The notes beneath the pieces were generated by a model. The model was given only the letters and a program-made list of their open reading frames with translations, made no database searches and was not told the DNA's origin. From Squalus acanthias (lineage: Eukaryota), in the NCBI GenBank assembly GCA_030390025.1, contig JASTWF010000034.1, forward strand, positions 5,828,001 to 5,892,000: a DNA stretch of 64,000 nucleotides. The letters run 5' to 3'. Shown piece after piece: positions 1,978-36,925 of the stretch. Every line of letters starts with the position of its first letter. Positions within the stretch are counted from its first letter, which is position 1. Made by a program: the position numbers and the translations under genes.

Positions 1978-2062
1978 CTGTTTGTTCAATGACTGTAATT
2001 AATGCCAGTTGCAGTGAGGCCTAATGATGTCACTCGGGGATTTCCCTCTGCTCTAAATAAGG
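1978..2062 (+). promoter_or_regulatory. Putative GPCR-family proximal promoter module, copy 1
   Basis: ctgtttgttcaatgactgtaattaatgccagt ... GGGGATTTCC ... taaataagg; conserved with the region upstream of the divergent exon 1 at 40574-40721. Confidence 0.6.
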
Positions 2063-2159: not shown

Positions 2160-2235
2160 ATGTTTAGGATATTATGAATATGGTATGATATACAAAATAT
2201 GTACTATCCCCTCCTCACTGCTGTCGGCGTTTCTA
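2160..2235 (+). pseudogene. Defective GPCR exon 1, copy 1
   Basis: Encodes MFRIL*IWYDIQNMYYPLLTAVGVS with in-frame TGA at 2175-2177. The donor position reads a|ggaagg instead of g|gtaagt. Confidence 0.7.
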
Positions 2236-7163: not shown

Positions 7164-8065
7164 TTAACTTAGTGACGATTGTGATCCTGTCTCGGGGAAA
7201 GTGTGGACTCTCCAAATGTGTCACTCGCTACCTGGTGGCCATGGCAGCGGCGGATCTACTGGTCGTCATCCTCGACCTGATATTGAGGCACATTCCGATT
7301 GTCTATAGGGAACAGTTTCTTTTCGTGCGGTTCATCCGCGTGTGTAATATCCACGCCGTCCTGCTGTTCGCAGCCTCAGACTGTTCTGTCTGGTTCACCG
7401 TCACTTTCACCTTTGATCGATTTGTGGCCATTTGTTGCCAGAAGCTGAAAACTAAACATTGCACCGAGAAAACGGCGGCTGTGGTTCTGGGAACAGTGAC
7501 TGTGCTGAGCGGTTTAAAGAACATTTTCTGGCATTTTATGTTCACAGATCAGTATGGGCTTCAGAACAAGCCCTGGTTTTGTGAGGTCACACTGGATGTT
7601 CAGTATTCACTGGTCTGGGGATCAATCGAGCTCCTTCATTATATTCTCACCCCCTGTGTCCCATTTGTGGTGATTGTGCTGCTCAATGCTGTCACCGTCA
7701 GACACATTTTAGTGGCCAGCAGAGCCCGCAGGAGACTCCGGGGTCCCAGCAGTGGGGAGAGTCCCAGAGACCCAGAGATGGAGAGCCGCAGGAAATCCAT
7801 CATTTTACTGCTTGTTATCTCCGGCAATTTCATCCTGTTATGGACAGTGTTTATGGTGTATTCTACATGGAGCCGGATGTGGTGGTTGGGGTATTCTTCT
7901 GTACTTCTACCTGATTATGTATTGGAACTGGGATTCATGCTGCAGCTGCTGAGTTGCTGCACAAACACTGGGATTTACGCCGTGACCCAGACTAAGTTCA
8001 GAGAGCAGTTGAAGAATGTGGGGAAATATCCCTTTACTCTGATTGTAAAATTCATTAAAGGATGA
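7164..8065 (+). CDS. GPR139/GPR142-like rhodopsin-class GPCR, main (last) coding exon, copy 1
   Basis: Intact ORF with hydrophobic TM segments, YLVAMAAADLL (TM2), FTFDRFVAIC (DRY-like) and CCTNTGIY (NPxxY variant). Polypyrimidine acceptor cccttccacacag|tt at 7163/7164, phase 1. Confidence 0.88.
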
Positions 8066-8127
8066 GAAGAAACGGAGACTTTGCAGCCCAAGAGTTGACA
8101 GTTCCCTGGGCCTGATAATGTGGCCTC

Positions 8128-8683
8128 CCGCACAAAGATGGCGGCTCCAGGGCCCCGCACAAAGATGGCGGCTCTGGGGCCCCGCACAAAGATGGTGGCT
8201 CTGGGGCCCCGCACAAAGATGGCGGCTCTGGGGCCCCGCACAAAGATGGCGGCTCTGGGGCCCCGCAAAAGATGGCGGCTCTGGGTCCCCGCACAAGGAT
8301 TGCGGCTCTGGGGCCTCGCACAAAGATGGTGGCTCGGGGCCCCGCACAAAGATGGTGGCTCTGGGGCCCCGCACAAAGATGGTGGCTCTGGGGCACCGCA
8401 GAAAGATGGCGGCTCTGGATCCCCGCACAAAGATGGCGGCTCTGGGTCCCCGCACAAGGATTGCGGCTCTGGGGCCCCGCACAAAGATGGTGGCTCTGGG
8501 GCCCCGCACAAAGATGGTGGCTCTGGGGCCCCGCACAGAGATGGTGGCTCTGGGGCCCCGCACAGAGATGATGGCTCTGGGGCCCTGCACAAAGATGGCG
8601 GCTCTGGGTCCCCGCACAAGCATTGCGGCTCTGGGGCCCCGCACAAAGATGGTGGCTCTGGGGCCCCGCACAAAGATGGCGGC
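8128..8683. repeat. 27-bp GC-rich minisatellite, ~20 copies, YY1-motif array
   Basis: Unit ccccgcacaaagatggcggctctgggg; mirror at 13909-14464. Confidence 0.95.
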
Positions 8684-8859
8684 AGTCACTCGGGGTCTTT
8701 CCCTGGCGGCGGGAGGCGAGTGTCCGGATGGCCAGAGCAGTTGGAGTCCAAGTTACTGTGAGAGCGGGCGGCGAGGCGGAGCAGCCTGGCCCGGCACGGC
8801 CCACAGGACCCCGAGCAGCCCAGCCCGGGGAGGAGATGGCCCGGCCCCAGGATTTTATT

Positions 8860-8990
8860 AGTCATTATAACACTTTAAATCATTACACCACTTTACAGAT
8901 CTTTTAAAACACTTTATAAATCATTATGACCATTCATTAAACATTATGACGATTTTTCAATCATTATGACACTTAATAAATCATTTTTAT
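8860..8990. repeat. AT-rich degenerate tandem repeat containing AATAAA (8975-8980)
   Basis: Repeated atcattatgacactttaaa-like units; candidate polyA signal for the GPCR. Confidence 0.55.
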
Positions 8991-8994
8991 ATTT

Positions 8995-9407
8995 AATTCT
9001 TGGGATGTGGGTGTCGCTGACAAGGCCAGCATTTATTGCCCATCCCTAATTGCCCTTGAGCGGGTGGTGATGAGCCGCCTGAGACAAGCGAGTGTCTTGT
9101 GGGCCATTTCAGAGGCCAGGTAAGAGTCAACCACATTGTAGTGGGTCTGGAGTCACATTTCAACCGGACCAGGTAAGGGCGGCGGATTTCCTTCCCGAAA
9201 GGCCATTAGTGAACCAGGTGGGTTTCTTACGACAATCTGGTACTTTTATGGTCACCATTATTGACACAAGCTTTTCATTCCAGATTTGTTTAATTAATCA
9301 AATTCAAATTCCCGCAGCTGGTGGGATTTGAGCACATGTCTCTGGATCATTTCTCGAGTTATCTGGTTTACTAGTCCAGCAACATAACCACTATGCTACC
9401 GTACCCT
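8995..9407 (-). mobile_element. tRNA-derived SINE sharing its 3' tail with the second CR1-group LINE family
   Basis: Head gggtacggtagcatagtggttatg, tail agggatgggcaataaatgctggcc; mirror at 13185-13597. Confidence 0.6.
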
Positions 9408-9929
9408 TCAAAAATATCACCGTTCTTTCATCGTCACTGGTTCAAAATGCTGAAATTCCTTCCACAACACTATTGTGGGAGCACCATCACCACGCGGACT
9501 GCAGCGGCTCAAGATGAAGGCCCACCATTTTCTCATGGGTAACTAGGGATGGGCAAGTGATACTAACCTTGACAGCATCACCCCTAGCCTGAGAACAAAT
9601 ACATAGAAATAATAAAATAGGATTCAAATCAATGATTTTATAATTCATTGATTGAAACCAGATGAGGCCTGTGATCAGAGCGAGGCGTCAAGTACGCTAA
9701 GCAAATTGTCAACACCACTTGGATCACCAATTCTATCGTTGTATGATTGATACTTGTCACACTTTCCCAATTTCCCAATCATTACAAAATGTGCTTGATA
9801 AATATCACATATTACCAAAATTGAAGCCCAGGGGATTAAAGTGGCAGTGACAACAGTCTGTCAGCAATCGGTCAACAATCGGTCTGTTACAGTGAGAGGT
9901 TTGGAATATGTAAGAGAGGATTAAAGTAA

Positions 9930-10267
9930 GGGGTATATCAGAGTGGTACAGAGAGGTGTGTGAGGTATATCAGTGTGGTACTGTAAGGATGTGTGGGGTA
10001 TATCAGAGTGTTGTAGTCAGGGGAGTGGGTTTACATCAGAGTGTTACAGTGAGGGGTGTTGGGTATATCTATATTTACATTGAAGGATGTATGGGGTATA
10101 TCAGAGTGTTGTAGTCAGCGGAGTGGGTTTACATCAAAGTGCTACAGTGAGCGGTGTTGGGTATATCAGAGTGTTACAGTTAGAGGTGTGGTGTGTAACA
10201 GAGTGTTACAATCAGGGGTGTGGCTTTATATCAGTGTTTTACATTGAGGGGTGTCGGGTATATCAGA
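9930..10267. repeat. Degenerate ggggtatatcagagtgttacagtga-type repeat
   Basis: Loosely periodic units; mirror at ~12325-12660. Confidence 0.7.
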
Positions 10268-11265
10268 GGGGGAGTAGTCAGGACACTAGCGGGGGAGGGG
10301 GGAGTAGTCGGGACACTAGGGGGGGAGGGGGAGTAGTCGGGACACTAGGGGGGAAGGGGAGTAGTCAGGACACTCGGGGGGAGGGGGAGTAGTCAGGACA
10401 CTAGGGGGGGAGGGGGGAGTAGACAGGACACTAGGGGGGGAGTGGGAGTAGACAGGACACTAGGGCGGGAGGGTTAGCCAGGACACTAGTGGGGGAGGGG
10501 GAGTAGTCAGGACGCTAGGGGGGGAGGGGGAGTAGTCAGGACACTAGGGGGGGAGGGGGAGTAGTCAGGACACTAGGGGAGGTAGAGTAGTCAGGACACT
10601 AGGGGGGAGGGGGAGTAGTCAGGACAATATGGGGGAGGGGGAGTAGACAGGACACTAGGGCGGGAGGGGTAGCCAGGACACTAGGGGGGGAGGGGGAGTA
10701 GTCAGGACACTAGATGGGGAGGGGGAGTAGTCAGGAAACTAGGGGGGGAGGGCGAGTAGTCAGGACACTAGGGGAGGAGGGGGAGTAGTCAGGACACTAG
10801 GGGGGGAGGGGGAGTAGTCAGGACACTAGGGGGGTAGGGGTAGTAGTCAGGACACTAGGGGGGGAGGGGGAGATGTCAGGACACTACGGGAGGGGGAGTA
10901 GTCAGGACATTAGGGAGGAGGGGGAGTAGTCAGGACACTAGGGGGGAGGGGGAGTAGTCAGGACACGAGGGGGGGGAGGGGGAGTAGTCAGGACACTAGG
11001 GCGGGAGGGGTAGCCAGGACACTAGGGGGGAGGGGGAGTAGTCAGGACACTAGGGGGGAGGGGGAGGGGGGAGCAGTCAGGACACTAGGGGGGGAGGGGG
11101 AGTAGTCAGGACACTAGGGGGGGAGGGGGAGTAGTCAGGACACTAGGGCGGGAGGGGTAGCCAGGACACTAGGGGGGAGGGGGAGTAGTCAGGACACTAG
11201 GGGGGAGGAGGAGGGGGGAGCAGTCAGGACACTAGGGCGGGAGGGGTAGCCAGGACACTAGGGGG
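10268..11265. repeat. ~27-bp G-rich minisatellite (ggggagtagtcaggacactagggggga)
   Basis: Runs into the gap; C-rich complement at 11766-12325. Confidence 0.95.
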
Positions 11266-11765
11266 NNNNNNNNNNNNNNNNNNNNNNNNNNNNNNNNNNN
11301 NNNNNNNNNNNNNNNNNNNNNNNNNNNNNNNNNNNNNNNNNNNNNNNNNNNNNNNNNNNNNNNNNNNNNNNNNNNNNNNNNNNNNNNNNNNNNNNNNNNN
11401 NNNNNNNNNNNNNNNNNNNNNNNNNNNNNNNNNNNNNNNNNNNNNNNNNNNNNNNNNNNNNNNNNNNNNNNNNNNNNNNNNNNNNNNNNNNNNNNNNNNN
11501 NNNNNNNNNNNNNNNNNNNNNNNNNNNNNNNNNNNNNNNNNNNNNNNNNNNNNNNNNNNNNNNNNNNNNNNNNNNNNNNNNNNNNNNNNNNNNNNNNNNN
11601 NNNNNNNNNNNNNNNNNNNNNNNNNNNNNNNNNNNNNNNNNNNNNNNNNNNNNNNNNNNNNNNNNNNNNNNNNNNNNNNNNNNNNNNNNNNNNNNNNNNN
11701 NNNNNNNNNNNNNNNNNNNNNNNNNNNNNNNNNNNNNNNNNNNNNNNNNNNNNNNNNNNNNNNNN
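11266..11765. other. Assembly gap (500 N)
   Basis: Run of N. Confidence 1.
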
Positions 11766-14526
11766 CCCCCCTAGTGTCCTGACTACTCCCCCCTACCCCC
11801 TAGTGTCCTGACTACTCCCCCTCCCCATCTAGTGTCCTGACTACTCCCCCTCCCCCCCTAGTGTCCTGGCTACCCCTCCCGCCCTAGTGTCCTGTCTACT
11901 CCCCCTCCCCCCTATTGTCCTGGCTACTCCCCCCTCCCGCCCTAGTGTCCTGTCTACTCCCCCCTCCTCCCTAGTGTCCTGACTACTCCCCCTCCCCCCT
12001 AGTGTCCTGACTACTCTACCTCCCCTAGTGTCCTGACTACTCCCCCTCCCCCCCTAGTGTCCTGACTACTCCCCCTCCCCCCCTAGCGTCCTGACTACTC
12101 CCCCTCCCCCCCTAGTGTCCTGGCTACCCCTCCCGCCCTAGTGTCCTGTCTACTCCCACTCCCCCCTAGTGTCCTGTCTACTCCCCCCTAGTGTCCTGAC
12201 TACTCCCCCTCCCCCCGAGTGTCCTGACTACTCCCCTTCCCCCCTAGTGTCCCGACTACTCCCCCTCCCCCCCTAGTGTCCCGACTACTCCCCCCTCCCC
12301 CCCTAGTGTCCTGACTACTCCCCCTCTGATATACCCGACACCCCTCAATGTAAAACACTGATATAAACCCACACCCCTGATTGTAACACTCTGTTATACA
12401 CCACACCTCTAACTGTAACACTCTGATATACCCAACACCGCTCACTGTAGCACTTTGATGTAAACCCACTCCGCTGACTACAACACTCTGATATACCCCA
12501 TACATCCTTCAATGTAAATATAGATATACCCAACACCCCTCACTGTAACACTCTGATGTAAACCCACTCCCCTGACTACAACACTCTGATATACCCCACA
12601 CATCCGTACAGTACCACACTTATATACCTCACACACCTCTCTGTACCACTCTGATATACCCCTTACTTTAATCCTCTCTTACATATTCCAAACCTCTCAC
12701 TGTAACAGACCGATTGTTGACCGATTGCTGACAGACTGTTGTCACTGCCACTTTAATCCCCTGGGCTTCAATTTTGGTAATATGTGATATTTATCAAGCA
12801 CATTTTGTAATGATTGGGAAATTGGGAAAGTGTGACAAGTATCAATCATACAACGATAGAATTGGTGATCCAAGTGGTGTTGACAATTTGCTTAGCGTAC
12901 TTGACGCCCCGCTCTGATCACAGGCCTCATCTGGTTTCAATCAATGAATTATAAAATCATTGATTTGAATCCTATTTTATTATTTCTATGTATTTGTTCT
13001 CAGGCTAGGGGTGATGCTGTCAAGGTTAGTATCACTTGCCCATCCCTAGTTACCCATGAGAAAATGGTGGGCCTTCATCTTGAGCCGCTGCAGTCCGCGT
13101 GGTGATGGTGCTCCCACAATAGTGTTGTGGAAGGAATTTCAGCATTTTGAACCAGTGACGATGAAAGAACGGTTATATTTTTGAAGGGTACGGTAGCATA
13201 GTGGTTATGTTGCTGGACTAGTAAACCAGATAACTCGACAAATGATCCAGAGACATGTGCTCAAATCCCACCAGCTGCGGGAATTTGAATTTGATTAATT
13301 AAACAAATCTGGAATGAAAAGCTTGTGTCAATAATGGTGACCATAAAAGTACCAGATTGTCATAAGAAACCCACCTGGTTCACTAATGGCCTTTCGGGAA
13401 GGAAATCCGCCGCCCTTGCCTGGTCCGGTTGAAATGTGACTCCAGACCCACTTCAATGTGGTTGACTCTTACCTGGCCTCTGAAATGGCCCACAAGACAC
13501 TCGCTTGTCTCAGGCGGCTCATCACCACCCGCTCAAGGGCAATTAGGGATGGGCAATAAATGCTGGCCTTGTCAGCGACACCCACATCCCAAGAATTAAT
13601 TATAAAAATGATTTATTAAGTGTCATAATGATTGAAAAATCGTCATAATGTTTTATGAATGGTCATAATGATTTATAAAGTGTTTTAAAAGATCTGTAAA
13701 GTGGTGTAATGATTTAAAGTGTTATAATGACTAATAAAATCCTGGGGCCGGGCCATCTCCTCCCCGGGCTGGGCTGCTCGGGGTCCTGTGGGCCGTGCCG
13801 GGCCAGGCTGCTCCGCCTCGCCGCCCGCTCTCACAGTAACTTGGACTCCAACTGCTCTGGCCATCCGGACACTCGCCTCCCGCCGCCAGGGAAAGACCCC
13901 GAGTGACTGCCGCCATCTTTGTGCGGGGCCCCAGAGCCACCATCTTTGTGCGGGACCCAGAGCCGCAATGCTTGTGCGGGGACCCAGAGCCGCCATCTTT
14001 GTGCAGGGCCCCAGAGCCACCATCTCTGTGCGGGGCCCCAGAGCCACCATCTCTGTGCGGGGCCTCAGAGCCACCATCTTTGTGCGGGGCCCCAGAGCCA
14101 CCATCTTTGTGCGGGGCCCCAGAGCCGCAATCCTTGTGCGGGGACCCAGAGCCGCCATCTTTGTGCGGAGATCCAGAGCCGCCATCTTTGTGCGGTGCCC
14201 CAGAGCCACCATCTTTGTGCGGGGCCGCAGAGCCACCATCTTTGTGCGGGGACCCAGAGCCACCATCTTTGTGCGGGGCCCCAGAGCCGCAATCCTTGTG
14301 CGGGGACCCAGAGCCGCCATCTTTTGCGGGGCCCCAGAGCCGCCATCTTTGTGCGGGGCCCCAGAGCCGCCATCTTTGTGCGGGGCCCCAGAGCCATTAT
14401 CTTTGTGCGGGGCCCCAGAGCCGCCATCTTTGTGCGGGGCCCTGGAGCCGCCATCTTTGTGCGGGAGGCCACATTATCAGGCCCAGGGAACTGTCAACTC
14501 TTGGGCTGCAAAGTCTCTGCTTCTTC

Positions 14527-15428
14527 TCATCCTTTAATGAATTTTACAATCAGAGTAAAAGGATATTTCCCCACATTCTTCAACTGCTCTCTGAACTTAG
14601 TCTGGGTCACGGCGTAAATCCCAGTGTTTGTGCAGCAACTCAGCAGCTGCAGCATGAATCCCAGTTCCAATACATAATCAGGTAGAAGTACAGAAGAATA
14701 CCCCAACCACCACATCCGGCTCCATGTAGAATACACCATAAACACTGCCCATAACAGGATGAAATTTCCGGAGATAACAAGCAGTAAAATGATGGATTTC
14801 CTGCGGCTCTCCATCTCTGGGTCTCTGGGACTCTCCCCACTGCTGGGACCCCGGAGTCTACTGCGGGCTCTGCTGGCCACTAAAATGTGTCTGACGGTGA
14901 CAGCATTGAGCAGCACAATCACCACAAATGGGACACACGGGGTGAGAATATAATGAAGGAGCTCGATTGATCCCCAGACCAGTGAATACTGAACATCCAT
15001 TGTGACCTCACAAAACCAGGGCTTGTTCTGAAGCCCATACTGATCTGTGAACATAAAATGCCAGAAAATGTTCTTTAAACCGCTCAGCACAGTCACTGTT
15101 CCCAGAACCACAGCCGCCGTTTTCTCGGTGCAATGTTTAGTTTTCAGCTTCTGGCAACAAATGGCCACAAATCGATCAAAGGTGAAAGTGACGGTGAACC
15201 AGACAGAACAGTCTGAGGCTGCGAACAGCAGGACGGCGTGGATATTACACACGCGGATGAACCGCACGAAAATAAACTGTTCCCTATAGACAATCGGAAT
15301 GTGCCTCAATATCAGGTCGAGGATGACGACCAGTAGATCCGCCGCTGCCATGGCCACCAGGTAGCGAGTGACACATTTGGAGAGTCCACACTTTCCCCGA
15401 GACAGGATCACAATCGTCACTAAGTTAA
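14527..15428 (-). CDS. GPR139/GPR142-like GPCR, main coding exon, copy 2
   Basis: Mirror of 7164-8065; intact; 4 amino-acid differences (L/I, L/M, R/S, T/A). Confidence 0.88.
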
Positions 15429-17101
15429 CTGTGTGGAAGGGAAATAAACAGGGAAATTATTCATCAGGCTGGGAGCAAAAGCAGCAGTTTGATGGAATTC
15501 GGGGTGAAATCTGCAACTCATTACCGACATTGAATGATATAATCTAATCCTATTACCTGTGGAGCTGAATACAGGGCTTATTGTAAGAATAATCGGGAAT
15601 ACATTGTGGAATCAGTAACTGAAATGGGAATAAACACAATATGAAAGTAACAGATGTTTGATCAAGGAGAGATTAAATGATCGATCTACATTTAGCCCAG
15701 CAGACAAAAGCACCGCCCGAGGTACCAGGGACACAAAGGACCAGACCCTCTCAGGAAGCCTTCGTGTCCCGGGTTCAGTCAGCATTTGGAGCGGTGCAGT
15801 TCGCTTCTGTGCCCCTGTGTTCGGGAGGGGGAAATCCCGCTTGGATTCCTGCTCTTGGTCAGAATATCCATTCTATTTAGAACTGAAAATTAATGCAACA
15901 GCAAAATATAGAAACTGCAACCTTGGCATGCAATAATTACAGGCAATTGTATGTAAAATGTACGGATGTAATATGACAATGCTAAGATACTAAATACAAG
16001 TGTACTGCAGTTATGAAGAAAACTGGGCTGTCAGATATGTTTTGAAGATAGAGATTTCTGCATTTTTGTTGAAATACACAAATTCTAGCTTATTGAAAGG
16101 AAGATTTGCCAAGTAACATTGCAAATAATGGACTCTGAATTAAATAAATAATGATGATTGACCAGGTAATGTCCCACTAAATGCATTTTTCAGCATCGAA
16201 ATCAGACGACTTAACCTACTGGCAAAGTGCCGCCAAATGCTGTTGTAAAGTATCTGAACACAAATGGAAGAGATTTATCCTTATACTTTTTCACCTGTTG
16301 TTTCCAACCTGTGCAGAGAATATTAGACGAGAAGGTATCAAAGGATTTTCTTATCCTCAGTACTTCAGTTACAATCAGCTGGGATTGTTTATCCTGAAGT
16401 ACAGCAGGAGGCAATAGAGAATCACTCTGGGTCTCACTGAGAGATCCACTGAACTGTGACAGACGGGCATGGGATCCAATTGTAAATTCAAAACAATGAT
16501 CAGAAAGAAATGTATTGAAATCTGGCTGAATTAACGTTTTGTGAGAATGTAATTTATCCGTTTAATCCTACTTTAACCATCAGAAGCAGTGCCAATAATG
16601 CAGAACTGGAGAGGGTGGGAAAGGAGACACTGATTGGAACTGAATGATTAGCGGATACTTCAGACTTTTAAAGATGTGGATGTGATCTGCCAGGATTTGT
16701 TCCTTTGACTCTGTAAGTAACCATACCGAGCATTAGGTGAAAACAAAAGCAAAATACTGCGGATACTGGAAATCTGAAATGAAAACAGAAAATGATGGAA
16801 ATACTCAGCGGGTCAGACAGCATCTGTGGAGAGAGAGAGAGAGACAGAGTTAACGTTTCAGGTCGATGGCCTTTCGCCATTAGGTGAAAAGTCTCCTAAA
16901 CCAAGACAGCATTCTTCTGACCTGATACAAATGTTCAGTGTCGGTAGCAGACTGAAATTCGTTCAATAAAGAGTCACCACCAATAAATTTACTTGAGTTG
17001 AACATTTGAATCTTGGTAACACGAAATCAGCTTCAGTATCAATAGCTGACAGCAGCGCGGATGGGATGGGGAACGACAGAGAGAGAAACACAGATAATCA
17101 T

Positions 17102-20100
17102 GGGGGGAAAAGTGGGTTTGTCAGCACCTCCCCTGAGCTCCTTCGGGGGAGGAGGGGTAACGGGGCGATAGGGGCTTAGCTCACGAGTGCGGCTATTTTA
17201 GCGCCGCTCACAAAATTAACCAGTCATTTTGCGCTGGCACTAAACACTGCCGCCACGATCTCCTGCGCCTGCAGATCGTGACATCAGTCGAGCGTGCAAT
17301 GCCCTGGTAGCGCCCCGGACTGAAAATTGAGTCGCGTGCCCTGCCTCAGCCCCTGCCGCTAGGAACGACACGTAGATGGGGAATGTTTTCAGGTCAGGAA
17401 GGGGCTGGGGGAGCGCTATTTAAAGGCGGTTTCCTCCTGCCGTTTCTTGTTGGCGAAATTTTTGTTACATTCAGGTTGAACACGTCTGGAGAGATTCGAC
17501 ACTCACCGAAGGAGTTTTGGGTCGTGAGCACCAATTTGGAGGTTCATTTTTATTTCAGCTTCTAACGATATTAAGAAGCTTCGATGGGGGCTGCACTAAC
17601 TTGGGGCGTAATCGTCCAGCTTCACCTTCGGAGACAGCTGAGGCACAGAGAGAGAGAGAGAGTGGCAAACGCGACCAGAGGGTGTGTGACCACAGACAGC
17701 TCATACTCGCCGTCAATGCCCGCTATCCTGGCAGCAGCGACAATGCTTTTATTCTGCGCCAGACCGGTGTTGCACACATCTTCCAACCACCGTGTCAACC
17801 TAGTGGATGGCTCCTCGGAGACAAGGTTTATCTACTCTGCGTCTGGCTGATGACACCGATCCATAACCCCAACACCCCTGTCGAACTGCAATACAATGAG
17901 AGCCATAGCGCCACCAGGAACATGATAGAGCAGGCGTTCGGCGTCTTGAAACAACGGTTCCGATTTTTGATCACTCAGGAGGAGCCCTGCAATACTCTCC
18001 CGAGCGAGTCTCCCTCTTGATTGTTGTGTGCTGCATGCTTTATAACATTGCAATCATGAGGACGCAGCCATTGCCACTAGGGATTGTTGCACCACCTAGG
18101 AGGAGGAGGAAGGGGGAGAGGAGGAGGAGGATGAGTAGCAGGAGGATGAAGAGGAGAATCAGCAGCACCAACGTGGGAGGGAGGTGTACAATGTTTCCAC
18201 TGAAAGGGCCGTCCGTGAACGGCTCATAAGTCACCGATTCTAACCCCTTACTGAGAAGATGGCTTCTGTGATGAAGAAGCACATCATTGAAAGCATCCCG
18301 CACACCCTGTTGCTGGACAAAGCTGCAATGAGTCAAATCAGAAAAGATGTAAAGTAACAATTAAAAAAATTAGTTGTGTTACCAACTCAGTGTCATTTAT
18401 TCAGGACAAACAAATTGAAACAAACACAACAATTCATGAACTAACAAAACTCGTTCTCACAACATGGAGATGAGCGGGAAAACTGTCAACAAATAGATGA
18501 ATAGCCATCACTGTGTGCAGCCATGTGTTTGGCAGAGGTGCCTATCATAGTTGAATAGCCATTACTGTGTGCAGACATGTGTTTGGCAGAGGTGCCTACA
18601 TAGTTGAATAGCCAGTACTGTGTGCAGCCATGTGTTTGGCAGAGGTGCCTACCATAGTTGAATAGCCATTACTGTGTGCAGCCATGTGTTTGGCAGAGGT
18701 GCCTACCATAGTTGAATAGCCATTACTGTGCGCAGCCATGAGTTTGGCAGAGGTGCGTACCATAGTTGAATAGCCATTACTGTGTGCAGCCATGTGTTTG
18801 GCAGAGGTGTCTACCATAGTTGAATAGCCATTACTGTGTGCAGACATGTGTTTGGCAGAGGTGCCTACCATATTTGAATAGCCATTACTGTGTGCAGACA
18901 TGTGTTTGGCAGAGGTGCCTACCATAGTTGAATAGCCATTACTGTGTGCAGACATGTGTTTGGCAGAGGTGCCTATTATAGTTGAATAGCCATTACTGTG
19001 TGCAGACATGTGTTTGCAGATGTGCCTATCTTAGTTGAATAGCCATTACTGTGTGCAGACATGTGTTTGGCAGATGTGCCTATCTAAGTTGAATAGCCAT
19101 TACTGTGTGCAGACATGTGTTTGGCAGAGATGCCTTACATAGTTGAAGAGCCATTACTGTGTGCAGCCATGTGTTTGGCAGATATGCCTATCATAGTTGA
19201 ATAGCCATTACTGTGTGCAGCCATGTGTTTGGCAGATGTGCCTATTATAGTTGAATAGCCATTACTGTGTGCAGACATGTGTTTGGCAGAGGTGCCTATC
19301 ATAGTTGAATAGCCATTACTGTGTGCAGACATGTGTTTGGCAGAGTTGCCTATCATAGTTGAATAGCCATTACTGTGTGCAGCCATGTGTTTGGCAGATG
19401 TGCCTATCATAGTTGAATAGCCGTTACTGTATGCAGCCATGTGTTTGGCAGATGTGCCTATTATAGTTGAATAGCCATTACTGTGTGCAGACATGTGCTT
19501 GGCAGATTTGCCTCCCATAGTTGAATAGCCATTACTGTGTGCAGACATGTGTTTGGCAGAGGTGCCTATTATAGTTGAATAGCCATTACTGTGTGCAGAC
19601 ATGTGTTTGGCAGAGGTGCCTATCATAGTTGAATAGCCATTACTGTGAGCAGCCATGTGTTTGGCAGATATGCCTATCATAGTTGAATAGCCATTACTAT
19701 GTGCAGCCATGTGTTTGGCAGACATGCCTCCCATAGTTGAATAGCCATTACTGTGTGCAGCCATGTGTTTTCAGACGTGCCTATCATAGTTGAATAGCCA
19801 GTACTGTGTGCAATCATGTGTTTGGCAGATGTGCCTCCCATAGTATATTTTTATTCGTTTATGGGATGTGGGCTTCGCTAGCATGGCTAGCATTTATTGC
19901 CCATCCCTAGTTGCCTTTGAGAAGGTGGTGGTGAGCTGCCTTCTTGAACCGCTGCAGTCTGTGTGGTGAAGGTACTCCCACATTGCTGTTAAGTAGGGAG
20001 TTACAGGATTTTGACCCAGCGATGATGAAGGATCGGCAATATACTTCTAAGTCAGAATGGTGTGTGACTTGGAGGGGAACTTGAAGGCGGTGGTGTTCCC

Positions 20101-20591
20101 ATGCGCCTGCCCTTGTCCTTCTTGGTGGAAGAGGTCGTGGGTTTGGGAGATGCTGCCGAAGAAGCCTTGGTGAGTTGCTGTAGTGTATCTTGTTGAATAG
20201 CGGTTAATGTGTGCAAGGTGTGGGATGTGGATGTGTGTTTTATGAAATGGCCATAGGTTTGAATGAGTGTTGGGCATTTGGGTTTGTCAACCCTCTGGGC
20301 ACAGAGTGAAGTTGAGATGGAGGGATGTAGAGGTTTGGAAAAGAAGGTACTCACCCTGACCACCTGAGTGAGCTCGTTGAACTTCTTCTGACATTGGGTG
20401 TGGGTCCTGGGCACCAGGGCCCTTGGGGAGATGTGCTGAGCCACCTCCCTCCACACTCTTCTAAACTCCCGGGGCGATGGCCTCCTGTGCCTCACAGGGA
20501 ACAACACTGCCCATCGCCGTTCCACAGCACCAACCAGAGCCACCAAAGCCTCGTCGCTCAAGCCCCTAGCTCTTTATCTGGGCCTCTCCAT
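17102..20591. mobile_element. Decayed PIF/Harbinger DNA transposon, copy 2
   Basis: Mirror of 2270-5492. Confidence 0.78.
18495..19845. repeat. 54-bp minisatellite, ~25 copies (mirror)
   Basis: Same unit, reverse complemented; ~270 bp longer. Confidence 0.95.
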
Positions 20592-20625
20592 TATTTTAAA
20601 TTAATAACTGGACATAGATCCTTCC

Positions 20626-20701
20626 TAGAAACGCCGACAGCAGTGAGGAGGGGATAGTACATATTTTGTATGTCATAACATATTCCTAATATCCTAAACA
20701 T
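20626..20701 (-). pseudogene. Defective GPCR exon 1, copy 2
   Basis: Open frame MFRILGICYDIQNMYYPLLTAVGVS, but the same GT>GG donor change. Confidence 0.7.
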
Positions 20702-20798
20702 TTCATCCCAATCTATGCCTTCACTTCTGTGAGTGTCTGGTGGTCTTTGTGCTGGGGGCAGCGCGCTGACTGTATGAGGTGACACAGTGAAGGGAGCT

Positions 20799-20883
20799 CC
20801 TTATTTAGAGCAGAGGGAAATCCCCGAGTGACATCATTAGGCCTCACTGCAACTGGCATTAATTACAGTCATTGAACAAACAG
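20799..20883 (-). promoter_or_regulatory. Putative GPCR-family proximal promoter module, copy 2
   Basis: Mirror of 1978-2062. Confidence 0.6.
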
Positions 20884-22153
20884 ACTCATTGAACCAGAGT
20901 CACTACAACACTTTACTCAACTACCTCCTCTTTCACTGTGACTTTGGCAGCAGCTTCTTCCTTGCTAAAGACAGATGCAAAGTATTTATTTACTATCTCA
21001 GCCATGCCCTCTGCCTCCATTCGTATGTCTCCTTTTTGGCCCTTAATCAGCCCCACCCCACCTCTTACTGCCCGTTTAATATTTATTTGCCGAAAGAAGA
21101 CTTTTGGATTCCATTTTATGTTAGCTGCCAATCTATTCTAATATTCTCTCTTTGCCCCTCTTATTTCCTTTTTCACTTCCTCTTTGAACTTTCTATATTC
21201 AGCCTGGTTCTCACTTGTATTCTGAACTTGACATCTGTCATACGTCCCATTTCTCTGTTTCCTCTTACTCTCCATCTTCCACTATCTCTTTCGTCATCCA
21301 GGGAGCTCTGGCTTTGGTTGCCCTACCTTTCCCCCTCGTGTGAATGTACCTCGATTGTACCTGAATCATCTCTTCTTTAAAGGCAGCCCATTGTTCGATG
21401 ACAGTTTTGCCTGCCAATCTTTGATTCCTTTTACCCAAGCCAGCTCCGTTCTTAACCCACTGAAATTGGCCCTCCCCCAATGAAGTATTTTTACTCTAGA
21501 TTGCTCCTTGTCCTTTTCCATAGCTAATATAAACCTCATGATACTGCGATCACCGTTCCCTGTGCGCTCCCTTACTGAAATCTTCTCCACTTCACCTACC
21601 TCATTCCCCAGAACCAGATCCAGCAATGCCTCCTTCCTCTTTGGGCCAGAAATGCACCAATCAAGAAAGTTCTCTTAAACTCACTAAGGAAATTCTTTCC
21701 CCTCTCTTCCCTTTATACGATTACTATCTCAGTCTATATTAGGATAACTGAAGTCCCCCATTATTAACACTCTATATTTCTTCCACCTCTGCAATTTCCC
21801 TGCAAATTTGCTCCTGTATTTCCTTCCCACCAGTTGGTGGCCTATAGAAGCGTTTTACAGCCAATGATTCTGCCATTCCCATTTGCAACATTTAACCTCT
21901 CCTGCCTTCCACCCTATCACAGACCATCTCTTTTGTTCATTCCTCCCCCCGCCTTTCCCTTCCCCTACACCTGCTTACAATCTGTTACATTTCTAACTTT
22001 TTCCAGTTATGTCGAAGGGTCACAGACCTGAAACGCTAACTCTGTTTCTCTCCCCACGGATGCTGCCTGAATTGCTGAGTGTTTCCAGCATTTTCTGTTG
22101 TTATTTCAGATTTCCAGCATCCGCAGTATTTTGCTATTGTAAGGTCTAAGATA

Positions 22154-22606
22154 AAAGAGAAAGAAAGACTTACATTTATATCGCGTCTTTCACGACCACC
22201 GGACGTCTCGAAGCGTTTTACAGCCAATGAATACTTTTGGAGTGTAGTCACTGTTGTAAGGTGAGAAACACCGCAGCCAATTTGCGCACAGCAAGCTCCC
22301 ACAAACAGCAATGTTATAATGCCCAGATTAATAGTTTTTGTTATGTTGATTGAGCGATAATTATTGGCCAGGACACCGGGGATAACTTCACTACTCTTCA
22401 TCGAACTAGTGCAACGGGATCTTTTACGTCCACCTGAGAGAGCAGTTTAACATCTCATCCGAAAGACGGCACCTCCAACAGTGCAGCACTCCCTCAGTAC
22501 TGCACTGGAGAGTCAGCCTAGATTTATGGTCTCAAGTCCCTGGAGCTTGGAACCCACAACCTCTGACTGAGAGGCGAGTGTGCTACCTACTGAGCCACAG
22601 CTGACA
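22154..22606 (-). mobile_element. DeuSINE, mirror copy
   Basis: Reverse complement of 259-710. Confidence 0.8.
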
Positions 22607-22916
22607 CTGTCAGATGGGTTTACAGAGCATGTGTGTAAACGCACAAAGCGTGGTCAATAAGGTGGGTGAGCTGCAGGCGCAAATAGCCACATAGGAAAAT
22701 GATGTCGTGATGATAACAGAGACCTGGCTCAAAAAGGGTAGGATTGGGTACTAAATATACCTGGATATAAGATGTTCGGGAAAGATAGGGAAGGAAAGAA
22801 AGGAGGTGGATTAGCAATATTGATTAAGGAGAATATAAGTGCTGGAGAAAGAGGATGTCTTCGAGGGGTCAAGGACAGAATCTATTTGGTTACAGTTAAG
22901 AAACAATAGAGGTACC

Positions 22917-24950
22917 ATTACACTGCTCCCACCTCAATCCAGGAATGTGATTCCCAGGGCTGCTTAGATTACACTGCTCCCGCCTCAATCCAGGAATGTG
23001 ATTCCCAGGGCTGTCTAGATTACACTGCTCCCACCTCATTCCAGGAATATCATTCCCAGGGCTGCCTAGATTACACTGCTCCCGCCTCAATCCAGGAATG
23101 TGATTCCCAGGGCTGCCTAGATTACACTGCTCCCACCTCAATCCAGGAATGTGATTCCCAGGGCTGCCTAGATTACACTGCTTCCACCTCAATCCAGGAA
23201 TATCATTCCCAGGGCTGCCTAGATTACACTGCTCCCACCTCAATCCAGGAATGTGATTCCCAGGGCTGTCTAGATTACACTGCTCCCACCTCAATCCAGG
23301 AATTTCATTCCCAGGGCTGCCTAGATTACACTGCTTCCACCTCAATCCAGGAATATCATTCCCAGGGCTGCCTAGATTACACTGCTCCCACCTCAATCCA
23401 GGAATGTGATTCCCAGGGCTGCCTAGATTACACTGCTTCCACCTCAATCCAGGAATTTCATTCCCAGGGCTGCCTAGATTACACTGCTCCCACCTCAATC
23501 CAGGAATTTCATTCCCAGGGCTGTCTAGATTACACTGCTCCCACCTCAATCCAGGAATTTCATTCCCAGGGCTGCCTAGATTACACTGCTCCCACCTCAA
23601 TCCAGGAATTTCATTCCCAGGGCAGCCTAGATTACACTGCTCCCACCTCATTCCAGGAATATCATTCCCAGGGCTGCCTAGATTACACTGCTCCCACCTC
23701 ATTCCAGGAATTTCATTCCCAGGCACAGCCTAGATTACACTGCTCCCACCTCAATCCAGGAATTTCATTCCCAGGACAGCCTAGATTACACTGCTCCCAC
23801 CTCAATCCAGGAATTTCATTCCCAGGACAGCCTAGATTACACCGCTCCCGCCTCAATCCAGGAATTTCATTCCCAGAACAGCCTAGATTACACTGCTCCC
23901 ACCTCATTCCAGGAATTTCATTCCCAGGCACAGCCTAGATTACACTGCTCCCACCTCAATCCAGGAATTTCATTCCCAGGACAGCCCAGATTACACTGCT
24001 CCTGCCTCAATCCAGGAATTTCATTCCCAGGACAGCCTAGATTACACTGCTCCCGCCTCAGTCCAGGAATTTAATTCCCAGGCACAGCCTAGATTACACT
24101 GCTCCCACCTCAATCCAGGAATTTCATTCCCAGGACAGCCTAGATTACACTGCTCCCGCCTCAGTCCAGGAATTTAATTCCCAGGCACAGCCTAGATTAC
24201 ACTGCTCCCGCCTCAATCCAGGAATTTCATTCCCAGGGCTGCCGAGATTACAGTGCTCCCACCTCAATCCAGTAATTTCATTTCCAGGCACAGCCTAGAT
24301 TACACTGGTCCCACCTCAATCCAGGAATTTCATTCCCAGGACTGCCTAGATTACACTGCTCCCACCTCAATCCAGTAATTTCATTTCCAGGCACAGCCTA
24401 GATTACACTGATCCCGCCTCAGGCCAGGCACTTCATTCCCAGGACTGCCTAGATTACACTGCTCCTACCTCAATCCAGGAATTTCATTCCCAGGGCTGCC
24501 TAGATTCCACTGCTCCCACCTCAATCCAGGAATTTTATTCCCTGGGCTGCCTAGATTACACTGCTCCCACCTCAATCCAGGAATTTCATTCCCGGGAGAG
24601 TCTAGATTACACTGCTCCCGCCTCAGTCCAGGAATTTCATTCCCAGGGCCGCCTAGATTACACTGCTCCCACCTCAGTCCAGGAATTTCATCCGCGGGAC
24701 AGACTAGATTACACTGCTCCCACCTCAGTCCAGGCACTTCATTCCCAGGACTGCCTAGATTACACTGCTCCTACCTCAATCCAGGAATTTCATTCCCAGG
24801 GCTGCCTAGATTACACTGCTCCCACCTCAGTCCAGGAATTTCATTCCCAGGGCTGCCTAGATTACACTGCTCCCACCTCAGTCCAGGAATGTGATTCCCA
24901 GGGCCGCCTAGATTACACTGCTCCCACCTCAGTTTAGGAATTTCATTCTC
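22917..24950. repeat. 51-bp minisatellite, ~40 copies
   Basis: Unit gattacactgctcccacctcaatccaggaatttcattcccagggctgccta; ~7 inverted copies at 63270-63617. Confidence 0.95.
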
Positions 24951-25139
24951 AGTCCATTTCTCTTTTGCCTGAAAATGGAAGAAGAAGAAGAAGAGTGACT
25001 TTACCCAGACAAACATGTCATCGTGTTTGACCGAGGGGAAGAATAATTAAAAGGAGCAGAGGATTAAAACGAAGGGATAAAAGGAAAAACACTTAAAATA
25101 TTAACCAACGAGATAAATACGCTGTATGCACCTCAATAC

Positions 25140-25647
25140 TCCAGTAAACACTCTGGAAACATTAAATTCTCGCATAATCATACTCACAGAAACATACCTG
25201 TCAGTCAACATTCTCAAACCCTCCATCACCATTCCAGGGTCTGCACTGACCCACCAGATATTGGGACACAGGGGTATACAATCGGGAGGGAGAAACCCTG
25301 CGAGTCCTCAACATTGCCTGAGGATATAATGAAGTCTGATGGCTTCCACTCAGACATGGGCAAGATAACTTCCTGCCGATTACCACCTACCGCCCTCCCT
25401 CAGCTGATGAATCGGCACATCGTCATGCTGAACACCAGTTGATGGGAGCACCGAGAGCAGAAAAGGCGCAAATTATACTCTGGGTCGGGAGGGGGAAACT
25501 TCAATGTCCATCAACAAGAGTGGCTCGGAAGTACCATCATTAACCGAGTCCTGAAGAACACAGCTGCCAGACTGGGATTGCGGCAGGTGGTGGGAGACCC
25601 AAGATGAGAGAATAGCCTGCTTGACCACGTCCTCACCAACCTACCTA
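25140..25647 (+). mobile_element. CR1-group LINE endonuclease fragment
   Basis: IIILTETYL, YRPPS, FNVH and LDHVLTNL-like motifs; inverted copy at 62570-63050. Confidence 0.65.
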
Positions 25648-26333
25648 TCTGACAGTGCAGTGCTCCCTCAGTACTGCCCCTCTGACAGTGCAGTGCTCCC
25701 TCAGTACTGCCCCTCTGACAGTGCAGTGCTCCCTCAGTACTGCCCCTCTGACAGTGATGCGCTCCCTTAGTACTGCCCCTCTGACAGTGCAGTGCTCCCT
25801 CAGTACTGCCCCTCTGACAGTGCAGCGCTCCCTCAGTACTGCCCCTCTGACAGTGCAGTGCTCCCTCAGTACTGCCCCTCTGACAGTGCAGTGCTCCCTC
25901 AGTACTGCCCCTCTGACAGTGCAGTGCTCCCTCAGTACGGCCCCTCTGACAGGGCAGTGCTCCCTCAGTACTGCCCCTCTGACAGGGCAGTGCTCCCTCA
26001 GTACTGCCACTCTGACAGTGATGCGCTCCCTCAGTACTGTCCCTCTGACAGAGATGTGCTCCCTCAGTATTGCCCCTCTGACAGTGATGCGCTCCCTCAG
26101 TACTGCCCCTCTGACAGTGATGCGCTCCCTCAGTACTGCCCCTCTGACAGTTTTGCGCTCCCTCAGTACTGTCCCTCTGACAGTGATGCACTCCCTCAGT
26201 ACTGCCCCTCTGACAGTGATGCGCTCCCTCAGTACTGCCCCTCTGACAGTGCAGTGCTCCCTCAGTACTGCCCCTCTGACAGAGATGCACTCCCTCAGTA
26301 CTGCCCCTCCAACAATGCAGCACTCCCTCAGTG
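25648..26333 (-). repeat. 33-bp DeuSINE-derived minisatellite, ~21 copies
   Basis: Unit gaggggcagtactgagggagcactgcactgtca on the minus strand; same unit as 61230-61955. Confidence 0.92.
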
Positions 26334-29300
26334 CTGGCTTGAGTGCAGTTTGTCATGGAGTGCAGCTTGGATCCGAGTGTTAAGTTGCGAGTTTGGTGAG
26401 TGAGGGAGTTCAGGGAGGGATGTGTTCCTTTCTTTTTCTGTCTTTGTCAGCTTCCAAGACCCGGTCAGTATTTCTACAGTCCAGTCGTTAAAATAAAAGT
26501 AAGGTCTCGAGTTTAGAGCAAGTAGTGCTTAAAGGGAAGTAAGGTACCTAGTGTATTTAATATTCTTTAATTTAAAGGGAGTAAATTATTGGTAGGACAT
26601 GGCAGGGCAGCTCGGCAGCGTGGAGTGCTCCTCCTGTGCTATGTTGGAAGTCAGGGACACTTTAGGTGTCCAGGGCGGACACATGTGCAGGAAGTGTCTC
26701 CAGCTGCAGCTACTCGAAAACCGCGTTTCGGAGCTGGAGCTGCGACTGGAGTCACTGTGGAGCATCCGCAAAGCTGAGATCTTCGTGGATAGAACATTTA
26801 ACGAGGTGGTCACACCGCAGGTAAAGAGTGCACAGGCAGATAGGAAATAGATGACAGCCAGACAGTGTAAAAGAACTAGGAAGGCAGTGCAGGAGTCCCC
26901 AAGGTCCATCTCCCTCTCCAATAGATTTTCCATTTTGGATACTGATGGGGGAGAGGGTTTCTCAGAGGAATGCAGCAAGAGCCAAGTCCATGGCAGTACG
27001 AGTGGCTCAGCACCACAGGAGGCGTGGGGGGGGGAAAGAGCGGGAGAGCAATAGTGACAGGGGATTCTATCGTAAGGGGAACAGATAGACGTTTCTGTGG
27101 CCGCAGACGTGACTCCAGGATGGTATGTTGCCTGCCTGGTGCCAGGTTCAAGGATGTCACTGAACGGCTGCAGGGTATTCTGAAGGGGGAGGGCGAACAG
27201 TCAGAGGTCGTAATCCACATTGGTACCAACGACATGGGTAAAAAGAGGGATGAGGTCCTGCAACAAGAATTTAGGGAGCTAGGTAGCAGATTAAAAAGCA
27301 GGACCTCAAAGGTTGTAATCTCTGTTTTACTCCCGGTGCCACTTGCTAGTGAATATAGGAATAGGAGGATAGAGCAGATGAATGCGTGGCTAAAGAGTTG
27401 GTGCAGGAGGGAGGGCTTTCGTTTCCTGGATCACTGGGTCTGCTTCTGGGGAAGGTGGGACCTGTACAATTTGGACGGGTTGCACCTGAACCGGAACGGG
27501 ATCAACATCCTTCCGGGGAGGTTTGCTAGTGCTGTTGGCGCGGGGGGGGGGCGGGAGGCGGGTGCGGTTTAAACTAACTTGGCAGAGGGATAGGATACGG
27601 AGTGGAGCTATAGTAGGGGGTGATGCACAGCCAAATATAGAGGAAAAAACAAGTCAGCCTGGAAGGCAGAGCAAATATGTAACGGCACAAGAATGTAAGG
27701 CAAGCCTGGTGGGCATTTATTTTAATGCAAGGAGTCTTGCGAGTAAGGCAGATGAATTGAAGGTGTTGATGAACACATGGGATATGATATTGTTGCTATC
27801 ACAGATACATGGTTGAGGGAGGGGCAGGACTGGCAGCTCAATATTCCGGGGTATAGAATCTTCAGGCGAGACACAGGGGGTGTAAAAGAGGAGGGGGTGT
27901 CTCAATATTAATCAAGGAGTCAATTACTGCAGTAATGAGGGATGATATCTTAGCAGGTTCCTCTAAGGAGGCCATATGGGTAGAACTTAAAACCAAAAAG
28001 TGGGCAAGCACTTTGCTGGGAGTGTACTACAGGGCCCCAAACCGTCAGGGGGAGATAGAAGAACAGATATGTAGGCAAATCTCAGAGAAGTTTCTAAATA
28101 ATAGGGTAATAATAGTAGGGGATTTCAACTTCCCCAATATTAACTGGGATAGTCAGAGTGTGAAAGGCTTAGAAGGTGCGGAATTGTTAAAGTGCATCCA
28201 GGAGAGCTTTTTGAGCCAACATATAGAAAGTGCTACAAGAGAGGGGGCAGTTCTGGACCTAATTCTAGGGAATGCAGCCATGCAAGAGGTAGAAGTGTTA
28301 GTAGGAGAGCATTTTGGTGACAGTGACCATAATTCGGTGAGATTTAAGGTAGTCATTGAAAAGGACAAAGATGGACCGGAATAATGGTTCTAAATTGGGG
28401 GAAGGCCAATTTTAATATGATAAGGCAGGATCTGGTTAAAGTGGACTAGGATCAGCTATTTGTAGGAAAATCCACATCAGAGCAGTGGTACTCTTTCAGA
28501 AAGGAAATAGAGAGAGTACAACACCAACATGTTCCCGTAAAAGTCAAGGTTGGGACCAACAAGCCCAGGGAATCCTGGATGTCAAGGGATATACAAGAAT
28601 GGATTGGGAAAGAAAGAGAGGCATTAGGCAGATACAAAGGACTAGAAACAGTGGAAGCCCTAGAGGAGTATAGAAAGTGCAGGGGGGTACTTAAAAAAGA
28701 AATTAGGAGAGCGAAGAGGGGGCATGAAAAAAAACACTGGCGGGCTAAAAAAAGGAAAATCCCAAGGTGTTTTATAAGTATATTAAGGGCAAGAGGATAA
28801 CCAGGGAAAGAGTAGGGCCCATTAGGGACCAAAGTGGTAATCTGTGTGTAGAGCCAGAAGATGTGGGTGAGGTTTTAAATGAATATTTTGCATTTGTGTT
28901 CACTATGGAGATGGACGATGTAGGCATAGAAATCAGGCAAGGCGATTGTGGTATACTTGAATAAATTAGTATTGAGAGGGAGGAGGTATTGCGGTTTTAG
29001 TGGGCATAAAAGTGGATAAATCCCCAGGCCCAGACGAGATGTATCCCAGGCTGCAGTGTGAGGCAAGGGAGGAGACTGCAGGGGCTCTGACATAAATTTT
29101 CAGAACCTCTCTGACCACAGGGGAGGTGCCAGATGACTGGAGAACAGCCAACATAGTACCATTGTTCAAGAAGGTTAGTAGGGATAAACCAGGAAATTAC
29201 AGGCCATTGAGCCTAACATCAGTGGTAGGGAAATTCTTGGAAAAAATTCAGAGGGACAGAGTTAGTCTACACTTGAAGAGGCAAGGATTGATCAAGGATC

Positions 29301-29754
29301 GTCAGCATGGCTTTGGAAGGGGGAGATCAGTTCTAAGCAATTTGATTGAAGTGACCAGGTTTCTGGATGAGGGTAGTGCAGTTGATGTCGTCTACATGGT
29401 CTTCAGTAAGGCTTTTGACAACGTCCCACATGGAAGACTGGTCAAGAAGGTAAGAGCCCATGGAATCCAGGGCAATTTGGCACATTGGATCCAAAATTGG
29501 TTTAGTGGCAGGAGGCAGAGTGTGATGGTCGAAGGATGTTTTTGTGACTTGATGCCTGGGTCCAGTGGTGTACCGCAGGGATCGGTGCTGGGACCTTTGC
29601 TGTTTGTAGTGTACATTAATGATTCAGATATGAATGTAGGCGGTATGATCAGCAAGTTCGCAGATGACACGAAAATTGGTGGAGTGGTAAAAAGCGAGGA
29701 CGACAGCCTCAGGCTCCAGGACGATATAAACGGTTTGGTTAGATAGGCAGAACA

Positions 29755-34026: not shown

Positions 34027-34189
34027 AACAGGGGCAAACTGAATTTAACCCGGAAAAGTGTGAGGTGATGCATTTTGGGAGGACTAACAAGGCAAGGAAA
34101 TACGCAATGAATGGTAAGACCCTAGGAAGGACAGAGGACCAGAGGGACCTTGGTGTGCATGTACATAGATCCCTGAAGACAGCAGGACA

Positions 34190-36379: not shown

Positions 36380-36925
36380 ATTTCAAAGTTTGAAAATGAC
36401 AGAAAACTCGGAAATGTTAATAAACAGTGAGAATGATAGTAACAGAAATTCAGGAGGTCGCAGACAGACTGGTGAAATGGGCAGACACATGGCAGATACA
36501 ATTTAACACAGAGAAGGGTGAAGTGATACATGTTGGTAGGAAGCATGAGCAGAGGCAATATCAACTAAACGGTACAATTTCAAAGCGGGTGCACGATCAG
36601 AGAGACCTGGTGTGTACTTACACAAATCATTGAAGGTGGCAGGACAAGTAGCGATGGCTGTTAATAAAGCATACGGAGTCCTTGGCTTTACAAACAGAGA
36701 CACAGAGTAACAAAATCCAGGTAGAAATGTTAACCTTTTAAAAAGCATTGGTTAGACCCCAGCTGGAGTATTGTGTCCAATTCTGAGCACCACACTTTGG
36801 CAAGCATGGCAAGGATTAGAGAAGGTGTAGAGGAGATTTACCAGAATGGTACCAGGGATCTGGATCTTCAATTACGTGGAGAGACAGGAGAAGCTGGGAT
36901 TGTTCTTTTTAGATCAGCGAAGGTT
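36380..36925 (+). mobile_element. CR1 RT C-terminal fragment (old)
   Basis: KWADTWQIQFN and RPQLEYCVQF-like sequence. Confidence 0.75.

Follow-up and report, generated by a model that had tools for sequence, protein, structure and literature searches.

A GPR139-Related Receptor Family of Over 1,000 Copies in Squalus acanthias: a Candidate Chemosensory Repertoire of Sharks and Rays

Overview

A 64,000-nucleotide stretch of the Squalus acanthias genome (NCBI GenBank assembly GCA_030390025.1, contig JASTWF010000034.1, positions 5,828,001 to 5,892,000 of the forward strand; hereafter the window, whose first letter is position 1) carries two near-identical genes for G-protein-coupled receptors (GPCRs) related to the orphan receptor GPR139. 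Sequence comparison places this pair, as very recent copies, in a family of more than 1,000 copies, and it is tentatively proposed that the family forms a chemosensory repertoire for variable, peptide-sized ligands. Each gene appears to combine a distal long first exon with a single main coding exon. An excess of amino acid change is found in the N-terminal helix, the outer end of transmembrane helix 1 (TM1), and extracellular loops 2 and 3 (ECL2 and ECL3), while the core and the cytoplasmic face are constrained. Since the outer surface changes faster than neutral DNA, the family probably constitutes a sensor set for diverse molecules that has so far been overlooked.

Family Size and Distribution

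Genomic copy number had been named beforehand as the measure that, if low, would speak against an expanded family. A 23-nt motif from TM3 has 1,090 exact matches across the genome, compared with 0 for the control, and they cluster on several chromosome-scale contigs; this count leaves out divergent members and takes in haplotype duplicates, if any. Of 4,691 first-look candidates from a protein search of the genome, the 131 that were scored are all at least 85% identical, 130 of them lack a stop, and 34 lie on this 6.1-Mb scaffold. The first 60 motif loci listed, which were fetched by motif regardless of similarity, are 50–97% identical to each other, and the main exon is open in 28 (29 by a looser rule) and broken in 32.

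Relatives in the protein database number 2,563 at E <= 0.001, and the 120 listed are all from sharks. Among 20 distant representatives, 12 come from sharks, skates, or rays and three from bony vertebrates, the other five being without a name; no chimaera member occurs among the named rows. The family is therefore found in both sharks and rays, and with its many clustered copies, intact and broken and of mixed ages, it is a birth-and-death multigene family, as the initial annotation of this DNA had proposed. In elasmobranch annotations the relatives bear the automatic name "probable G-protein coupled receptor 139". The literature searched, which lacked most subscription papers, yielded no account of the family, and the repertoire is apparently undescribed.

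Diversifying Selection on the Outer Surface

Selection on the main exon was assessed in 50 close, open copies (48 paralogues and the two copies of the window), with the loops, helices, and inside assigned from the secondary structure and helix numbering of a model of a sawshark relative. The ratio of nonsynonymous to synonymous differences per site (pN/pS), calculated over pairs that are not independent, was 2.09 for the outer loops (95% interval 1.27–3.72); by part, it reached 4.48 in ECL2, 2.25 in ECL3, and 1.02 in ECL1, and fell to 0.53 in the helices and 0.31 on the inside. A codon model gave a rate ratio (omega) of 2.33 for the outer loops, with twice the log-likelihood difference (2dlnL) about 41 against omega = 1, and near 0.5 for the rest. 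For the ectodomain encoded by the long exon, omega was 3–5 (2dlnL about 20) and pN/pS 3.59 (2.06–7.53), compared with 0.28 for the start of TM1 (25 distinct sequences). A second, short type of first exon showed no clear signal (pN/pS 0.65, 0.38–1.39). Along the helix predicted at the N-terminus and along TM1 where it extends outward, variable positions recur every 3–4 residues, which would place them on one helical face.

Diversifying selection thus acts at the outer loops and the ectodomain and is absent from the deep pocket among close copies, in which seven of the ten GPR139-pocket positions checked are constant in 49–50 of 50. This nearly invariant pocket beneath a varying surface is what would be expected if the receptors bound one conserved endogenous ligand and their exterior diversified to escape a binding pathogen or parasite. 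Such an explanation is nevertheless improbable: the pocket also varies across the wider family (position 6.51 is F/L/Y/N/Q and 3.33 is Y/F/H/R/S/N), and escape does not need a thousand copies.

The window pair is already divergent in this region. The two long exons differ at 15 of 177 bases, amounting to 11 nonsynonymous codons and one synonymous codon of 59, compared with 0.7% in the intron, and the right-hand long exon is nearer to a paralogue on scaffold C3315 (1 of 125 bases) than to its mirror copy (12 of 125). Across 20 cassettes paired by position, of which five were read through, ectodomain divergence did not track that of its own intron (rho 0.14, p 0.19), whereas main-exon divergence did (rho 0.65, p 0.0005; 20 pairs). 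The behavior of the ectodomain is consistent with sequence exchange among copies.

Gene Models in the Window

The two intact main exons reported in the initial annotation were recovered as described (Table 1), their 7 differences in 902 bases comprising 4 nonsynonymous and 3 synonymous changes. The main exon matches Pfam 7tm_1 (E 4.9e-21; 75.8 bits versus a curated cut-off of 30.5) and belongs to class A. Both exons occupy mirror positions within an inverted duplication of ~33 kb, whose left arm spans about -21,500 to 11,265 and whose right arm spans 11,766 to 44,675 (negative positions lie before the window); the arms are 99.1–99.3% identical in the main blocks and 97.7–98.7% in other blocks. 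Because the arms meet at a 500-N gap, the adjacency and orientation of the two copies rest on scaffolding. The start of a third cassette, also noticed earlier, was seen again near 62.6 kb. Beyond the window, its short exon 1, with a GT donor, ends at 65888, and its main exon (71413-72313) is frameshifted by a 1-bp deletion. In 214 kb of surrounding scaffold, the only main exons are these three.

Table 1. Positions of receptor exons, promoter cores, and duplication landmarks (window coordinates)
Feature	Positions	Strand	Remarks
Main coding exon, left arm	7164..8065	+	End of TM1 to stop; preceded by AG acceptor; frame open
Main coding exon, right arm	14527..15428	-	Open; begins after AG; 7 nt differ from left copy
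Short first exon, left arm	2160..2235	+	Premature TGA at 2175-2177; donor GT>GG; degenerate
Short first exon, right arm	20626..20701	-	Open, yet donor GT>GG; degenerate
Long first exon	40265..40445	-	60 codons + 1 nt; GT donor
Long-exon promoter core	40560..40710	-	TGTTTGTT..TGACTGTAATTAAT motif twice, second TAAT site, TATA-like box
Short-exon promoter core	1979..2060	+	Homologous to long-exon core; mirror begins at 20882 (-)
Right arm of inverted duplication	11766..46119	-	Mirror of -22000..11265; ends in 51-bp satellite (45204-46119)
500-N scaffold gap	11266..11765		Centre of inverted duplication, within GC-rich minisatellite 9931-12661
Third cassette, start	62572..64000	+	~95.5% identical; rest runs past window

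Both of the first-exon types described earlier are present. The short exon lies ~5 kb upstream of the main exon and ends in A/GG instead of A/GT in both arms. It was rejected as the working first exon of both copies, with the donor lost in both and a stop in one, and among 40 close paralogues, 6 whose main exon is open lack the homologous stretch. In these 40, the short exon was located within ~9 kb in 20 and skipped by the flanking homology in the 6, while the other 14 are undecided.

The long exon encodes a 14-aa repeat with an N-glycosylation sequon, the hypervariable helix, and the start of TM1. Long exons lie 24.8 kb upstream of the right main exon and 24.3 kb upstream of the left one, for which the mirror exon ends at -17157, outside the window. 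The 30 best-matching long exons all keep the GT donor, and 28 keep an open frame; all three paralogous cassettes read through likewise have a long exon, then a short exon, then a single main exon. The long exon of Table 1 is likely the working exon 1 of the right-arm gene, and each arm is predicted to encode a receptor of ~360 aa from its distal long exon, with an intron of 24.8 kb in the right arm. This corrected gene model is of practical importance, as a local reading would miss the exon in which the receptor is most variable.

At the start of the long exon (40400-40490, minus strand; loci L150-L179), the 42-bp (14-aa) repeat varies in copy number, and each unit carries an N-x-T sequon; a 19-mer from it has 460 exact matches in the genome. 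The repeat may form a glycosylated stalk of variable length.

Promoters

The promoter core shared by the two exon types has 750 matches in the genome, compared with 0 for the control, and it carries forkhead-like and homeodomain-like sites. TAAT sites are present in promoter segments of the family. In mammals, odorant-receptor promoters carry homeodomain and O/E sites. A kappaB-like GGGGATTTCC adjoins the TATA box of the short-exon promoter but is absent from all long-exon promoters scanned and from more distant subfamilies. A family-wide kappaB or O/E promoter was considered, and neither was found in the segments scanned. A shared core suggests one cell type choosing among many copies; the promoter sites fit sensory and immune cells alike.

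Another promoter motif of the family occurs at G000:C2671 about 5767100 (window -60856, plus strand). Between it and position 7164 the assembly contains no main exon, and a gap and a 33-kb satellite intervene.

Transcript Evidence

Evidence for splicing came from sequencing runs only guessed to be RNA, none of those listed being on record as such; they were searched as contigs, carry no tissue label, and derive from other individuals or species. In three of four such runs, sequences related to the long exon stop precisely at the donor. In run X14, the next nine letters are the commonest start of a main exon (48 of 108 loci), followed by adapter-like sequence. The continuation in X15 corresponds to intron sequence of locus L051 that follows an AG, and that in X18 matches the long exon's own 5′ region. 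The long-exon donor is used by family members in two studies, and a productive splice is backed by one short join at another locus. Among the matches listed for contigs aligned to 2000-8200, no exon-skipping joint was found, and the intron is covered as well as the exon, an uninformative result.

In X17 and X18 (positions 40265 and 40546, minus strand; one study), the end of a long exon is joined to an AG-preceded site in the long exon's own 5′ region. Such joints could reflect either circular RNA of exon 1 or splicing into the next long exon downstream.

Alleles or Paralogues

Two inverted copies that flank a gap and whose arms break off within the same repeats have the look of an uncollapsed haplotype. 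However, a third, 99% copy of the upstream 20 kb sits at the end of scaffold C3394. Over 13,667 columns aligned among the three copies, which are within 0.5–0.7% of each other, sites with a lone variant number 46 in the left arm, 50 in the right arm, and 19 in C3394. There must be at least two very young loci, since one diploid locus cannot yield three haplotypes. Sequencing error was rejected as the source of the arm differences: the transition/transversion ratio is 0.82 among the three copies and 0.83 among paralogues, and 42 of 113 lone variants recur in two paralogues. At 32 of the 50 lone sites of the right arm, the base is also found in two paralogues.

The left arm and C3394 look like the closer pair in view of these 32 sites, and also because their long exons are alike and both enter a long satellite, the right arm a short one. 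The farthest flank, where C3394 is nearer to the right arm (98.7%) than to the left (97.8%), counts against a clean pairing of this kind. On balance, the two window copies are probably true paralogues, and the possibility that they are merely two alleles is less likely than first thought. Active duplication is likely, given the three copies within 0.5–0.7%, but it cannot be read from the window pair alone, which straddles a gap.

It is also conceivable that the family is mainly a product of mechanical amplification in regions rich in satellites, that uncollapsed haplotypes swell its apparent size, and that few of its genes are functional. The 32 broken copies in the sample of 60, the many matches on small unplaced scaffolds, and the gap-straddling pair with its shared breakpoints in repeats would fit this explanation. 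It is very unlikely, however, given purifying selection on the core with omega > 1 outside, the intact donors and largely open frames of the long exons, the clusters on chromosome-scale contigs, and the retention of the family across sharks and rays.

Repeats and Transposon Remnants

Each of the three near-identical copies has a 51-bp satellite ~4.5 kb upstream of its long exon, with a length that ranges from 0.9 kb to 33 kb (45204-46119 and -55629..-22048 in window coordinates; L196 1-5000). The transition/transversion ratio is low among young copies (0.5–0.83; loci L043-L082 and L150-L179).

Harbinger-like remnants occupy 2261-2809 (plus) and 4364-5283 (minus), mirrored at about 17400-20570, in the intron just behind the short exon; they include a DDE_Tnp_4 match (E 2.6e-18) and a Myb/SANT-like open reading frame (ORF) below the cut-off and are common to many paralogues. 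An 11.5-kb satellite of ~31-bp units (49073-60628) directly follows a second 500-N gap (48573-49072). Other minisatellites lie at 3025-4100, 8127-8683, 22917-24948, 25648-26332, and 47773-48569. Judged from ORF translations alone, 26500-47300 holds several decayed fragments of long interspersed nuclear elements (reverse transcriptase/endonuclease-like), which fill the long intron.

Ancestry and the Ligand Site

The window genes are not GPR139 orthologues, as indicated by the tree, the copy number, and the polar ligand site. A human GPR139 motif has one match in the genome (locus L143), compared with the 1,090 of the family motif, and the L143 product is 88–96% identical to the top GPR139 entries (88% to the human-source match). 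In a careful tree of 39 of the 71 rows of a quick fallback tree, with three unnamed proteins as outgroups, GPR139 and GPR142 form a clade (100/100) that excludes the family and in which L143 groups with GPR139 (91/94). The family forms a separate clade (99/97) with a salamander gene as sister (100/99), and the next-closest clade is a conserved single-copy orphan known from sharks to reptiles. Owing to several long branches and the three-protein outgroup, the deeper branching order is less sure than the split from GPR139. The earlier suggestion of a lineage-specific family rather than a 1:1 orthologue is thus borne out, the genome having its own GPR139 elsewhere.

The family can nonetheless be placed with the GPR139/142-related orphan group, and its nearest characterized relative is GPR139, with N-x-x-x-Y and no proline in TM7. 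The best sequence matches in the PDB are GPR139/GPR142 (7VUG, 9M42; E 3.8e-11). The predicted structure of the sawshark relative (P0005; 80–81% identical to the main exon; mean model confidence, pLDDT, 88.7) has a seven-helix fold; a Foldseek search with it listed 50 matches, all class A receptors, with 7VUG at rank 4, a search that does not discriminate among class A receptors. DRF in TM3 and NTGIY in TM7, both highlighted in the initial annotation, are indeed present in the window receptors, but they fail as a distinctive signal, GPR139 and GPR142 also departing from NPxxY: human GPR139 and shark and chimaera GPR142 read NFFLY, which makes NTGIY a lineage trait.

The residues of the Trp/Phe site of GPR139 have been placed by mutagenesis and modelling (PMC5430874). 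At this site the window protein keeps F3.33, H5.43, and W6.48, whereas the polar site for the amino acid backbone (E3.32, R6.51, and N7.38) reads L, F, and F, in the window protein as in 49–50 of 50 close copies. With these three residues replaced, an aromatic amino acid sensor of the GPR139 kind is unlikely.

Two further GPR139-related orphans lie outside the expansion: L144 (G000:C17:37413763-37414743), with no mammal or bird among the 120 matches listed, and the long-branched L145 (G000:C9:120526268-120527191), with no close relative in the tree.

Functional Interpretation

If the family is a chemosensory repertoire, each gene would be transcribed from its distal promoter, and the long exon 1 would be spliced to the main exon with the decayed short exon skipped, to yield the ~360-aa receptor. 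A fast outer vestibule, a slow deep pocket, and a constant signalling side would fit ligands of a size to reach both the loops and the N-terminal helix, for example peptides or proteins. New specificities probably come from tandem duplication, from exchange of sequence between copies, and from selection acting on the exterior, and all copies would presumably signal through the same G protein. A more far-reaching and doubtful version holds that sharks and rays possess a further sensory repertoire of the size of the mammalian odorant receptors, which would have been built independently from a GPR139-related orphan, would read peptide or protein cues by the hypervariable N-terminal helix and outer loops, and would diversify by exchange of separately promoted first exons.

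Several points weigh against the chemosensory interpretation. The splicing evidence comes from the unlabelled runs described above, and the O/E (Ebf-type) consensus is in none of the promoter segments scanned. The 50 copies were picked for closeness and open frame, and sequence exchange can inflate a tree-based omega. In catshark, every olfactory neuron bears microvillous markers, with V2Rs as the main repertoire known (PMC10116579), and no GPCR is among the top 50 genes of an olfactory library (PMC11979771), from which sparse receptors would escape. Moreover, variation of the outer surface fits immune recognition equally well.

By analogy with the expansions of formyl-peptide and Mrgpr-type receptors, the family could instead serve innate immunity, its members detecting variable peptides of microbes or parasites at the surface of leukocytes or barrier epithelia. 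A strongly diversified outermost surface over a fixed core and the mosaic exchange among copies, in which the ectodomain does not track its own intron, would suit this role, as would the kappaB-like site beside the TATA box; that site, however, sits on a decaying exon and is missing from the long-exon promoters and distant subfamilies scanned. An immune role is regarded as unlikely, if still worth weighing beside the chemosensory one.

Cartilaginous fishes have been described as having a relative paucity of GPCRs (PMC8455134) and as poor in olfactory receptors (PMC10116579), even though their olfactory organs are large. A repertoire that exceeds 1,000 copies, with about half of its main exons open and a positively selected outer face, would overturn the GPCR-poor picture, whichever tissue is concerned. 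To this the window adds a corrected gene model, a recurrent cassette with two first exons, and a young pair already divergent in the ectodomain.

Comparison with Known Systems

L-Trp and L-Phe activate the class A orphans GPR139 and GPR142, which share with the family the missing TM7 proline, F3.33/H5.43/W6.48, and a phase-1 intron in TM1 common to the family copies examined. They differ in forming a separate clade, in number (one GPR139 motif match versus more than 1,000 family copies), and in the polar residues, which are replaced in the family. The sister gene of salamanders, auto-named "probable GPR139" (XP_069092602.1 of Pleurodeles and XP_069461538.1 of Ambystoma), is ~31% identical to the family, sits on a long branch, keeps K6.51 and N7.38, and appears unexpanded in the 5-member cluster examined.

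The single-copy orphan XP_005988539.1/L144 of coelacanth, fishes, amphibians, reptiles, and sharks also falls outside the family, with one genome copy at 85%. Additional GPR139/142-like subtypes, including GPR210A/B, were reported in coelacanth and fishes by Rinne et al. 2019 (PMC6504862), in whose main text the word "shark" is absent; the L144-type orphan is possibly GPR210A/B.

With regard to the vertebrate chemosensory repertoires (OR, TAAR, V1R, V2R, T2R, and rodent FPR-rs), the family likewise has clustered tandem arrays, many pseudogenes, a compact coding region, and a shared short promoter. It is of different ancestry, with only 7tm_1 matched, and lacks an O/E site in the segments scanned. 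Odorant receptors vary in the pocket formed by TM3, TM5, and TM6, whereas the recent variation of this family lies on the outer surface.

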